Below are positions 1 through 17,323 of a DNA stretch of 17,323 nt, piece by piece. Each line of letters begins with the position of its first letter. The first letter of the stretch is position 1. The notes under the pieces are model-generated. The model saw nothing but the letters and a program-made list of their open reading frames with translations, had not been told where the DNA came from and did not search any database. Made by a program: the position numbers and the translations under genes. The DNA is from an uncultured Gammaproteobacteria bacterium (lineage in GTDB: Bacteria > Patescibacteriota > Patescibacteriia > UBA2591 > UBA6264): NCBI GenBank assembly GCA_964507075.1, contig CAZDOL010000003.1:1-17323 (forward strand). The letters run 5' to 3'.

Positions 1-39
1 AGCTTTTTAAAATATATACAAAAAACATAAACAAAAATT

Positions 40-114
40 TGGAGCGGGTAGGGGGAATCGAACCCCCGTCATCAGGTTGGAAACCTGAGATAATAACCAT
101 TATACGATACCCGC
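40..114 (-). tRNA. tRNA-Gly (anticodon UCC), CCA encoded
   Basis: The reverse complement reads GCGGGTA..TCAGG-TTTCCAA-CCTGA..GGGGG-TTCGATT-CCCCC-TACCCGC-T-CCA. It has a 7-bp acceptor stem, TCC at anticodon positions 34-36, a canonical T-loop and a U73 discriminator. Confidence 0.93.
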
Positions 115-4087: not shown

Positions 4088-4140
4088 AAACAAAAAAATA
4101 CTATCAAATTTTAATAGTATTATCTATCAGCGATTTATTT

Positions 4141-4169
4141 GGGAACCGAGTTCCCAAGTGTTTTAATTT
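4141..4169 (+). terminator. Candidate intrinsic terminator after the permease gene
   Basis: GGGAAC-CGA-GTTCCC hairpin (4141-4155) followed by AAGTGTTTTAATTT. The T-tract is interrupted, so this is a weak call. Confidence 0.4.
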
Positions 4170-4173
4170 GGTC

Positions 4174-4210
4174 GGTACGCTGAGCGTACCATGGGCCAAG
4201 CTAAGCTTGG
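4174..4210 (-). other. tRNA-Pro 3' trailer with two triloop hairpins, the first containing the encoded CCA
   Basis: In tRNA sense: CCAAGC-TTA-GCTTGG (4210..4196), CCCAT, then GGTACGC-TCA-GCGTACC (4190..4174). Same architecture as the tRNA-Ser trailer. Confidence 0.75.
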
Positions 4211-4283
4211 TCGGGACGGAGAGACTCGAACTCTCGATTTCCTGCTCCCAAAGCAGGCGCCTTAGCCACTAGGCTACGCCCCG
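4208..4283 (-). tRNA. tRNA-Pro (anticodon UGG), CCA encoded
   Basis: The reverse complement reads CGGGGCG-TA-GCCT..AGGC-G-CCTGC-TTTGGGA-GCAGG-AAATC-GAGAG-TTCGAGT-CTCTC-CGTCCCG-A-CCA, a 76-nt cloverleaf with TGG at positions 34-36. Confidence 0.93.
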
Positions 4284-7302: not shown

Positions 7303-8625
7303 ATGTTTTATCCTCTTGTATTCTTCTCTATATTCTTTATTTGGTTAAGCTGGAATTATCAGAAATGGTCTTTATTTTTGATTTTAGCGCTTTTACCCGC
7401 TTATCAAATTCGTTTTCAAATCCTAGAAATTCCTTTGACATTTTTAGAGATTTTAATTTTGGTTTTATTTATTGTTTGGTTGATTAAGAAGATAAAATAC
7501 AGGCAATATCCTATTTTTGATTATAAAAAGCCGAGAATATGGTTTTGGTCAATTTTAGCATGGTTTTTAATATCAATAATAGCAGTATTTATATCCCCTG
7601 ATTTGCGTGCTGGGGCTGGCATTTGGAAGGCCTATTTCTTAGAGCCAATCTTATTCCTTATTGTGTTTTTGGATATAATAAGAAATAAAAAGGATTTAAG
7701 GTTAGCAGTTGGGACTTTAATTTGTTCGGGCTTGCTGGTTACTTTTTATGCTTTTTATCAAAAAATTACTGGTCAAGGGGTTTGGAGCACTGAAATTTGG
7801 GGACAACCGAAAATTTTAAGGGCAACTGGGCCCTTTCCTCATCCCAATTTTTTGGGTCTGTATCTTGGTCCTTTATTTATGCTGGGATTAGGGTATATAT
7901 TTTTAAATTTCAAAAAAAACATCCCATTTATTGTTAAAACCATATTTTTTGCAGTATTATTTTTAGGTTCTCTTGCTTTTGCTAAATCTGAAGGAGCAAT
8001 AATAGCTATCTTTGTTGCCTTGCTCTTTTGTGGTGTGCTTTATAAGCCAGTCAGAAAATGGGTTTTGGTTCTGATTTTAGTTCTTATTTTGCTATTGTTG
8101 TCTTTTTCCGTTTCACGTCATTATTTGACAGAGAAAATATTTTTTCAAGACCTTTCTGGTCGTTTGAGGGTTAATATTTGGAAAGGTGCTTCAGAAATAT
8201 TAAAAGAAAAATCCGTTTTAGGAGCAGGGTTAAATGGATATCGTGTTTTAGCTCCTCAATATCAAGAACGTTATTACGACCAAAGCACCCAAGAATTGAT
8301 TTCCGTTGAAACACATCCTTATCCACATAATTTGCTTTTAACAATTTGGCTGGAGCTTGGATTATTAGGTTTGGTTATTTTTTTCTTGATTCTGTTCCAA
8401 TTTTTTAAAAAAGGTTTTAAAAATTTTAAAAAAGAACCAATCTTAATTGGTTCAATTATGGGAGCAATGGCAGTTATTCTAATCCATGGATTGGTTGATA
8501 CCCCATATTTTAAAAATGATTTAGCAATTCTGTTTTGGGTAATTATAGGAGCAATGATAATTATTTCACGGAGAGGTACCGAAGTGGTCATAACGGCATC
8601 GCCTCGAAAGCGATTGGTCCCGTAA
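7303..8625 (+). CDS. O-antigen ligase/polymerase-like (Wzy_C domain) membrane protein
   Basis: Polytopic membrane protein containing the Wzy_C-type segment AKSEGAIIAIFVALLF ... THPYPHNLLLTIWLELGLLGLVIF. Starts 1 nt after the flippase stop. Its last 56 nt run into tRNA-Ser. Confidence 0.75.
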   Translation: MFYPLVFFSIFFIWLSWNYQKWSLFLILALLPAYQIRFQILEIPLTFLEILILVLFIVWLIKKIKYRQYPIFDYKKPRIWFWSILAWFLISIIAVFISPDLRAGAGIWKAYFLEPILFLIVFLDIIRNKKDLRLAVGTLICSGLLVTFYAFYQKITGQGVWSTEIWGQPKILRATGPFPHPNFLGLYLGPLFMLGLGYIFLNFKKNIPFIVKTIFFAVLFLGSLAFAKSEGAIIAIFVALLFCGVLYKPVRKWVLVLILVLILLLLSFSVSRHYLTEKIFFQDLSGRLRVNIWKGASEILKEKSVLGAGLNGYRVLAPQYQERYYDQSTQELISVETHPYPHNLLLTIWLELGLLGLVIFFLILFQFFKKGFKNFKKEPILIGSIMGAMAVILIHGLVDTPYFKNDLAILFWVIIGAMIIISRRGTEVVITASPRKRLVP

Positions 8626-8660
8626 GGGGCACGTGGGTTCGAATCCCTCCCTCTCCGCCA
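8570..8660 (+). tRNA. tRNA-Ser (anticodon CGA), long variable arm, CCA encoded
   Basis: GGAGAGG-TA-CCG..CGG..ATCGC-CTCGAAA-GCGAT-TGGTCCCGTAAGGGGCAC-GTGGG-TTCGAAT-CCCTC-CCTCTCC-G-CCA. Class II tRNA with CGA in the anticodon loop; the T-stem has one U-U mismatch. Confidence 0.88.
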
Positions 8661-8693
8661 CGCTCAGCGTGGCCATTGGGACGCTTAGCGTCC
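8657..8693 (+). other. tRNA-Ser 3' trailer with two triloop hairpins, the first containing the encoded CCA
   Basis: (G)CCACGC-TCA-GCGTGG(C) at 8657-8673, then CCATTG, then GGACGC-TTA-GCGTCC at 8679-8693. Confidence 0.75.
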
Positions 8694-8716
8694 GGCTAGT
8701 TAATTTTATTTATATT

Positions 8717-9160
8717 ATGAAAAATTGTTTTTTTTCGAAAACGAAAATACCGAAAAATTTACCCAAGGAAATGCAAAAAATAATCCATAAAATAAAGGAA
8801 TCATCAAATCAAAAGCAATGTTTAAGGAATGTCTATGAGATTATAACCGACAGATATCGTGGATATAGATTTGAGACATATACTAAATTATTTCAGATGT
8901 TTACGCTTGACGTTCAAAAGTTGTGGAACGGGACTAATTTTATCCACTGTAACAACGCTAACTATTTGATGAGAATATTATTGGTCAAAAGTGGTTTTTT
9001 TAATAATAATAACATTGAAAATAAATGGACATTAGTATGGTATATTTCACCTCATCAATATCTGCGAATAAAATTAAATAACCGTCAATATATCAACATA
9101 GACATTTGGGGCGCAGCTCATGGAATTAAATTTGGTGATTATGCCCACGGATTTCATTAA
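8717..9160 (+). CDS. Transglutaminase-like superfamily protein (putative Cys-His-Asp enzyme), copy 1
   Basis: 147 aa from the first ATG outside the tRNA. The motif layout fits a transglutaminase core: FIHCNNANYLMRILLVKSG (Cys), PHQYLRIKL (His), YINIDIW (Asp). The ORF-track GTG start at 8633 lies inside tRNA-Ser and is rejected. Confidence 0.6.
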   Translation: MKNCFFSKTKIPKNLPKEMQKIIHKIKESSNQKQCLRNVYEIITDRYRGYRFETYTKLFQMFTLDVQKLWNGTNFIHCNNANYLMRILLVKSGFFNNNNIENKWTLVWYISPHQYLRIKLNNRQYINIDIWGAAHGIKFGDYAHGFH

Positions 9161-9167
9161 TTATTTT

Positions 9168-9196
9168 TTGACAAATCAAAAAAAGTGTTTTAGATT
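9168..9196 (+). promoter_or_regulatory. Sigma70-type promoter inside repeat copy A, reading toward the 74-aa ORF
   Basis: TTGACA (9168-9173), 17-nt spacer, TAGATT (9191-9196). It is followed immediately by the inverted repeat CCGCTCT (9197-9203)-N16-AGAGCGG (9220-9226), which spans the expected transcription start. Confidence 0.55.
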
Positions 9197-9296
9197 CCGC
9201 TCTATCAAAGGATTACAAGAGAGCGGTTTAAGGGGACTGTCCCCATGAAAATAAAGGTCGCAAATTATATAAACATTAATTTTTTAACTTAATATT

Positions 9297-9521: not shown

Positions 9522-9599
9522 TTGGTATGCTCAAAGTTTCTGAATAGTGGGCTAACCTTTGGGACGCTTAACGTCCGGCTAGTTAATTTTATTTATATT

Positions 9600-10043
9600 A
9601 TGAAAAATTGTTTTTTTTCGAAAACGAAAATACCGAAAAATTTACCCAAGGAAATGCAAAAAATAATCCATAAAATAAAGGAATCATCAAATCAAAAGCA
9701 ATGTTTAAGGAATGTCTATGAGATTATAACCGACAGATATCGTGGATATAGATTTGAGACATATACTAAATTATTTCAGATGTTTACGCTTGACGTTCAA
9801 AAGTTGTGGAACGGGACTAATTTTATCCACTGTAACAACGCTAACTATTTGATGAGAATATTATTGGTCAAAAGTGGTTTTTTTAATAATAATAACATTG
9901 AAAATAAATGGACATTAGTATGGTATATTTCACCTCATCAATATCTGCGAATAAAATTAAATAACCGTCAATATATCAACATAGACATTTGGGGCGCAGC
10001 TCATGGAATTAAATTTGGTGATTATGCCCACGGATTTCATTAA
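9600..10043 (+). CDS. Transglutaminase-like superfamily protein, copy 2 (coding sequence identical to copy 1)
   Basis: Same 147-aa product as 8717..9160. The ORF-track TTG start at 9522 adds an unsupported N-terminal extension. Confidence 0.6.
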   Translation: MKNCFFSKTKIPKNLPKEMQKIIHKIKESSNQKQCLRNVYEIITDRYRGYRFETYTKLFQMFTLDVQKLWNGTNFIHCNNANYLMRILLVKSGFFNNNNIENKWTLVWYISPHQYLRIKLNNRQYINIDIWGAAHGIKFGDYAHGFH

Positions 10044-10050
10044 TTATTTT

Positions 10051-10079
10051 TTGACAAATCAAAAAAAGTGTTTTAGATT
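10051..10079 (+). promoter_or_regulatory. Duplicate of the TTGACA-N17-TAGATT promoter (copy B), reading toward the palindrome cluster and DUF523 gene
   Basis: TTGACA at 10051-10056 and TAGATT at 10074-10079, followed by the same CCGCTCT-N16-AGAGCGG inverted repeat. Confidence 0.55.
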
Positions 10080-10120
10080 CCGCTCTATCAAAGGATTACA
10101 AGAGAGCGGTTTAAGGGGAC

Positions 10121-10158
10121 AGTCCCCTTTGAAAAAGTTAGTCCCCTTTGAAAAAGTT
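10121..10158 (+). repeat. Exact 19-bp tandem duplication
   Basis: AGTCCCCTTTGAAAAAGTT occurs at 10121-10139 and again at 10140-10158. Confidence 0.9.
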
Positions 10159-17165: not shown

Positions 17166-17207
17166 TTAAAATACCTTAATTTATATATAATGATAATTTA
17201 ATTTCAA

Positions 17208-17323
17208 GGTTCTGCGAGCACAGCGAGCAGGTTCTTACTATGAGCGTAGCGCGAATAGCAAGGTTCTACGAGCACAGCGAGCAGGTTCTTACTATGAGCG
17301 TAGCGCGAATAGCAAGGTTCTAC
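17208..17323. repeat. GC-rich 54-bp tandem repeat truncated by the window end
   Basis: Unit GGTTCT[G/A]CGAGCACAGCGAGCAGGTTCTTACTATGAGCGTAGCGCGAATAGCAA occurs at 17208-17261 and 17262-17315. The first 8 nt of a third unit are at 17316-17323. One mismatch: 17214 g versus 17268 a. Confidence 0.9.

Follow-up and report, generated by a model that had tools for sequence, protein, structure and literature searches.

What are the paired hairpins that start at the encoded CCA of two tRNA genes in this genome, and how did they come to be there? The stretch of DNA that was analysed, 17,323 nucleotides long and referred to here as the window, lies in a 613-kb assembly (G000) of 30 contigs that is 92% complete. 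It is treated here as a Patescibacteria genome, since the genomes grouped with it at phylum level bear Patescibacteria names. The original prediction described a two-hairpin trailer shared by tRNA-Pro and tRNA-Ser, and proposed for it a role in 3′ processing, termination or protection of the CCA end, or as a protein-binding site. On re-reading the window, both trailers were recovered with position and sequence as predicted, and both form a pair of hairpins whether folded as RNA or as either strand of DNA (z ~ -3 to -5). The features on which the argument depends are as follows.

4208..4283, minus strand: tRNA-Pro(TGG) with encoded CCA, the host target (ARAGORN, Rfam).
4195..4211, minus strand: Pro palindrome 1, 17 bp, core GCT-T-AGC, 7/8 pairs (from sequence).
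4174..4190, minus strand: Pro palindrome 2, perfect, 17 bp, core GCT-C-AGC, centre 21 bp from that of palindrome 1.
4169..4175, minus strand: direct copy of the tRNA-Pro 3′ end (CCGACCA), the right insertion junction (evidence includes the empty-site alignment).
4170..4207, minus strand: segment of 38 nt (38-39, depending on an A run) missing from the orthologous G002 locus (alignment).
4139..4157, no strand assigned: separate, older palindrome of a RAYT-associated repeat family, outside the unit.
8570..8660, plus strand: tRNA-Ser(CGA) with encoded CCA, the host target (ARAGORN, Rfam).
8657..8673, plus strand: Ser palindrome 1, perfect, 17 bp, from G73 onward.
8678..8694, plus strand: Ser palindrome 2, 17 bp, 7/8 pairs, centre 21 bp from that of palindrome 1.
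8694..8698, plus strand: degenerate direct repeat of the tRNA-Ser terminus, reading GGCTA instead of the expected CGCCA (comparison with L013, L073 and L087).
9561..9577, plus strand: lone copy of Ser palindrome 2 with one core mutation, heading the second copy of a ~570-nt duplication.

The doublet pattern matches three times in the genome and not once in 20 order-4 Markov simulations, and therefore is not due to chance. Every match lies at a tRNA 3′ end, those of Pro(TGG), Ser(CGA) and a tRNA-Ile at a contig end (C22:5577-5614). With a fourth, decayed copy behind tRNA-Pro(GGG) at C7:11401, 4 of the 44 tRNA genes carry the unit; the two predicted trailers are real, and two further copies lie elsewhere in the genome. 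The unit is absent at the window's other two tRNAs, and the tRNAs were the sole matches in an Rfam search of the window. Single, imperfect GCT-N-AGC hairpins also occur in intergenic DNA (C4:22886, C10:17877 and C5:30695; L402, L404 and L405), for which an Rfam search returned no family above threshold.

The unit measures 37-39 bp and consists of two 17-bp palindromes, 3-4 nt apart, followed by a repeat of the last 4-6 bases of the tRNA. The two-hairpin architecture thus stands, while the repeat of the tRNA 3′ end beyond hairpin 2 had been overlooked. The CCA end is indeed paired, but not in a 6-bp stem that begins at the CCA: the palindrome spans 17 bp and the first one starts at the discriminator base N73, with the left arm of Pro palindrome 1 (4195..4211) being the N73-C74-C75-A76 of the tRNA itself. 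The bases of the proposed TYA triloop are present, but because the T and A that flank the loop are complementary, each hairpin is really an odd palindrome with core GCT-N-AGC and a free middle base (T in 60, C in 66, A in 48 and G in 24 cores of the tRNA-anchored copies). Among 105 distinct tRNA-anchored copies the second palindrome is found in 93, with palindrome centres 20-21 bp apart in 88, and 14 of 93 loci contain 3-4 palindromes. The arms outside the 7-bp core vary freely, with complementarity kept. In 56 gap-free copies, 98.6% of cells are paired, with 180 double changes and only 4 G-U cells, which is the compensatory covariation expected from the predicted selection on structure. Mismatches show no excess of G-U, with 9 G-T and 10 A-C, and such near equality is the pattern of strand-symmetric DNA.

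Orthologous loci indicate how the trailer arose. The tRNA-Pro locus of the same-genus genome G002 aligns to the window with one 38-nt gap exactly across the unit, and is therefore an empty site. In G002 tRNA-Ser(CGA) is followed by a different hairpin and a decayed GIY-YIG gene, the tRNA-Ile genes of G001 and G002 are without the unit, and a doublet search of these two same-genus genomes found none. Two unrelated palindromic repeats of genome G116 contain exact inserts of 37 nt (17 + 3 + 17 nt), one repeat in 4 of its 10 copies and the other in 5 of 10, and both also occur as empty copies. In one of these repeats the original target GAC lies to the right of the insert, and the left arm (GCC or GTC) matches the unit's inner arm. 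Judged from these filled and empty sites, the trailer is an exact insertion of 37-39 bp that leaves a short repeat of the target end. The older palindrome at 4139..4157 doubles as the terminator-like site of a convergent ABC permease gene and is found decayed in G002. Assembled contigs from one DNA run include a minor-strain joint that skips 4088-4207 and has unknown sequence between, which we do not treat as evidence.

Doublets were found in 27 of 401 genomes of the phylum (~7%; control 2), at 1-17 copies per genome. The 67 tRNA-linked copies span 29 anticodon types, tmRNA ends are also hit, and in G250 an identical unit is found at three different tRNAs. A search made without requiring a tRNA returned 58 sites, which were sorted by reading into 7 chance matches, 3 members of another family and 48 real units; the latter comprise 24 at tRNA or tmRNA 3′ ends, ~4 at remnants of tRNA ends, 9 within other repeats and ~11 elsewhere. 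The tie to tRNA 3′ ends was therefore correctly seen, and the outcome that the prediction itself named as refuting it, a generic REP-like element scattered equally between genes, is half borne out: the unit is a REP-like DNA element, but has a strong preference for tRNA ends.

The copies also place the junction. In the 67-copy set (29 anticodon types) the direct copy equals the host tRNA at N73 in 46 of 47 cases and at N72 in 43 of 47, with permutation means of 29 and 28; the N73 figure is taken from this set because the 105-copy alignment was registered on N73, C74 and C75, which makes matches there circular. Agreement extends to N71 (52 of 71) and not to N66-N70, and the idea of a longer, "zig-zag" repeat of the tRNA's last 10 bases was rejected for this lack of a match. 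No more than 33-35 nt separate one copy of the tRNA end from the other. Among discordant cases, the left arm agrees with the unit's inner arm at positions 75-76 in 26 of 27 and with the right-hand copy at N72 in 17 of 21; when the arm differs from the tRNA at N72, the direct copy sides with the tRNA 17 times and against it 3 times. The outer pair of palindrome 2 matches the target base in 75 of 77. This pattern puts the junction near N73/C74, with the old end displaced downstream and the CCA of the gene replaceable. CCA is lacking in 23 of the 105 copies, with CCG in 14 and CCC in 5. Positions 75-76 follow the inner arm and N72 follows the target, so that insertion pushes the old gene end downstream and a working end is kept, although arm conversion after insertion could mimic an element-borne left arm. 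In tRNA and tmRNA genes the unit is inserted at the N71-N73/CC junction; similar C-RMC sites in other hairpin repeats are used at times. Tandem arrays and unit-gene-unit arrangements are also seen (L010, L021 and L101).

The gene in these arrangements suggests a partner. A small GIY-YIG gene lies directly downstream of 11 of the 67 tRNA-linked units, on the same strand, and 10 of these 11 genes carry the signature LKGG[N/K]G. In the reciprocal search, starting from the protein, a palindrome was found within 400 nt upstream of 73 of 74 LKGG[N/K]G genes. A tree of 108 GIY-YIG proteins contains one supported clade (97/90) in which 59 of 62 members have the palindrome upstream, compared with 2 of 46 proteins outside it. 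Units are present in 6 of 6 phylum genomes with a KGG gene (up to 17 copies) and in 20 of 394 others, a comparison among kin that are not independent, so that P values overstate the association. When 88 units were found by DNA alone, a gene of the clade was within 600 nt in 17. By these comparisons, the unit is tightly linked to a single clade of ~90-aa single-domain GIY-YIG nucleases. The doublet is probably a protein-binding site, as one of the original proposals had it.

The clade proteins are 89-93 aa long, single-domain and PF01541-type, with a confident predicted fold. The GIY-YIG catalytic residues Y5, Y16, G18, R26, H30 and E62 are invariant. The nearest solved relatives are UPF0213 BH0048 and Slx1/HIGLE, with all Foldseek matches above E 0.001, and an NCBIfam search returned no family above cut-off. 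A member of the clade whose signature reads LKSGKG accompanies a unit in which both cores are changed to GTT-N-AAC; this is a single case. A search for GTT-N-AAC doublets was at control level overall (6 versus 11 genomes), with only 2 hits being real units and only 1 of them having a gene. Most clade genes have a unit on one side only and no defined right end, and a search for a conserved right end beyond the nuclease gene found a copy of the tRNA end of at least 8 nt in 1 of 35 loci. None of the six GIY-YIG genes in this 92%-complete assembly belongs to the cognate clade, and no remnant was found; we infer that the four units of this genome are orphans of a cognate nuclease that was lost or left unassembled.

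Other GIY-YIG subfamilies also occur behind tRNAs, with other hairpins. Control subfamilies (L238, L240, L245, L251 and L256) each have a hairpin of their own that starts from the end of a tRNA or tmRNA, and in some of them this end is also directly repeated, which suggests many cognate hairpin/nuclease pairs. In L153, L154, L183 and L217 the unit and nuclease gene follow a non-tRNA sequence that these loci share, and all that remains of the tRNA is TCACC, as would be expected had a larger island integrated between tRNA and unit. A second kind of GCT-N-AGC doublet lies beyond the nuclease gene in L148, L151, L154 and L183. At the left end of the window, tRNA-Gly(TCC) has a GIY-YIG gene of another subfamily within 12 nt downstream, without a hairpin, and window positions 1-60 (minus strand) overlap the start of contig C22 (G000:C22:1-75).

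Several further repeats were observed in the window and the rest of the genome. A ~570-nt segment is duplicated near-exactly, 883 nt apart (window 8673-9244 and 9556-10126); it starts at Ser palindrome 2, encodes a 147-aa transglutaminase-like gene, and has a GGGGAC-N-GTCCCC palindrome near the end of both copies. An O-antigen ligase-like ORF (window 7303-8625) runs 56 nt into tRNA-Ser(CGA) and stops inside it, as it does in G002. Two tandem 54-nt copies of a structured repeat of the AAGGTTCT...GGTTCTTA family occupy window 17200-17307, with others elsewhere in the genome. At least a dozen triloop palindrome families are found in this genome, some within RAYT reading frames. The palindrome family AGCTTYGATGTAAATCRAAGCG lies just 5′ of five Arg/Lys tRNA genes, all beginning GCCCC, at the following sites.

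C1:67660, C2:21370, C2:31150, C3:33900 and C7:20050: AGCTTYGATGTAAATCRAAGCG palindromes.

Other hairpin families start from the 3′ ends of tRNA-Ser(TGA), a tmRNA-like gene and tRNA-Gln (C7:24165, C7 near 16250 and C4:35988), and downstream of two of them are GIY-YIG genes from other subfamilies. Several records titled "uncultured Gammaproteobacteria", among them L068 (G354), fall in the class of this genome, and these titles are probably wrong.

Taken together, the explanation that we favour, and consider fairly likely, is that the unit is a mobile, non-autonomous doublet of DNA that owes its spread to a cognate GIY-YIG nuclease. The nuclease would recognise the hairpin core in single-stranded DNA and, by analogy with SsnA at its NTS hairpin, would cut beside it. 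By way of 3-5 nt of microhomology, host repair could then copy the unit to a new site, where its inner arms would pair with the target. Ends of tRNA genes would be favoured because they offer N-CC beside a stem and because the gene still works after an insertion there. Since GIY-YIG enzymes only hydrolyse DNA and cannot themselves join it, the nuclease does not explain the joining step. A bolder form of this explanation, which we regard as doubtful, is that the doublet and its 90-residue nuclease make up a minimal, undescribed transposition system in which the inner arms serve as a DNA guide, a change of 2-4 bases would retarget the element to another tRNA, and the CCA encoded in the gene would be overwritten on insertion. 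Many such hairpin/nuclease pairs, with a different core for every GIY-YIG clade, would then colonise the ends of stable-RNA genes across Patescibacteria.

The doublet might instead be an operator or immunity site on double-stranded DNA for a nuclease dimer, with solo copies as relics of gene-deleted cassettes and the unit immobile on its own. Centres 20-21 bp apart correspond to two helical turns, the central base is free, and the unit stands directly before the gene start in most clade loci, all of which would suit an operator. We nevertheless judge this unlikely, since G116 contains exact gene-less inserts in 9 copies of other repeats, G250 has its identical units at three tRNAs, and the arms vary yet stay complementary, which is needless for sequence read-out of duplex DNA. 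It is more improbable still that the unit is mobile through another enzyme (a RAYT/HUH transposase, an integrase or host template switching), with the GIY-YIG gene only sharing or protecting the site. HUH enzymes cut and rejoin single-stranded hairpin DNA (PMC8266576), and this genome has ten Y1/RAYT genes in its 613 kb and no cognate nuclease. Those ten genes, however, have palindromes of other families on their flanks, the unit is almost completely linked to one GIY-YIG clade, and no RAYT match lies within 600 nt of any of the 88 units, in a search with a profile built from the ten Y1 genes that a divergent RAYT could escape. RAYT was rejected as the partner on this count. At the foot of the palindromes, the tetranucleotide GTAG was found at 0 and CGTC at 4 of 176 ends.

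That the trailer acts as RNA, signalling maturation of the tRNA 3′ end or termination or protecting the CCA, as originally put forward, is least probable, and we would be surprised if it were the explanation. The hairpins would be stable in the transcript, Rho-independent terminators abut the CCA in E. coli proK, proL and proM, and E. coli proline tRNAs mature in a single RNase E step that CCA-adjacent hairpins direct (PMC5291269). Like those terminators, the unit places a hairpin straight after the encoded CCA; unlike them, it pairs the CCA itself, is DNA-symmetric and is not kept at orthologous tRNAs. The terminator check at both trailers agreed with the original prediction that no U tract follows the hairpins on the tRNA strand, and the mark of an intrinsic terminator, a G+C stem with a U tract behind it on the transcribed strand, was not found there. 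Against an RNA signal also stand the patchy presence (few genomes of the phylum, and empty orthologues in both same-genus genomes), the lack of a G-U bias, the copies that have CCG or CCC in place of CCA, and the units inserted in repeats outside tRNA genes. A side effect of the unit on pre-tRNA processing is possible. The mobile doublet thus remains our preferred reading, and a warning follows from it: conserved-looking hairpins behind Patescibacteria tRNA genes can be selfish DNA and not processing signals.

A search of the literature outside subscription journals found no description of the unit, in line with the original remark that it was not recognised as a described element, and several known systems resemble it in part. 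Phages and islands insert at tRNA and tmRNA 3′ ends, leave the gene functional and shift its old end downstream. The present unit shares this target and this outcome; unlike these integrative elements it is 38 bp long, has a repeat of 3-6 nt, and extends as one family over 29 anticodon types, with no integrase gene or cargo in the 33-35 nt between the tRNA-end copies that would correspond to attL and attR. The fungal mitochondrial double-hairpin elements (Paquin et al. 2000, as cited in PMC2800124) are also tiny two-hairpin insertions that are patchy among close relatives, and are an analogy only: the Allomyces elements are without flanking repeats of the target (PMC2800124), whereas the present unit is bacterial and has flanking target repeats and a candidate cognate enzyme.

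Closer parallels are found among bacterial repeats. REP, BIME and REPIN sequences are likewise extragenic palindromes of 20-50 nt that form pairs and tandem arrays (PMC8266576), and the REP/RAYT system shares with the unit its non-autonomous nature and a partner enzyme gene beside some copies. REPs are defined by a GTAG tag and an adjacent RAYT (PMC8266576); in contrast, the partner here is a GIY-YIG nuclease, the copy number is low (1-17 per genome), and the target is a defined tRNA end. The nearest likeness is to the Ssn nucleases (SsnA, cd10448) and their NTS/SRM hairpin repeats (Chenal et al. 2025, PMC11893778). SsnA cuts single-stranded DNA at its NTS hairpin, and mobility of small GIY-YIG genes and hairpin repeats was proposed there without evidence of movement; tRNA and Patescibacteria are nowhere mentioned (PMC11893778). 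Both systems tie a single-domain ~90-aa GIY-YIG gene to its own short palindrome, have many gene-less copies in the genome, and show a repeat-gene-repeat layout at some loci. The present unit differs in being a fixed doublet of perfect 17-bp palindromes, in targeting tRNA and tmRNA 3′ ends with a short target repeat and with filled and empty sites that show insertion, and in having a nuclease whose nearest solved relatives are UPF0213/Slx1-like; none of 93 units matches the published SRM pattern on either strand. The unit therefore works like Ssn/SRM or REP/RAYT and belongs to neither, since the SRM pattern, the GTAG tag and an adjacent RAYT are absent. What this different clade adds to the Ssn picture is a 37-39-bp unit with exact boundaries, sites in both filled and empty form, a defined target junction and a natural variant pair of core and enzyme, which together make the idea of mobility testable with one 90-aa protein and a 60-mer, and which would add site-specific single-strand nucleases of new specificity to those already described.
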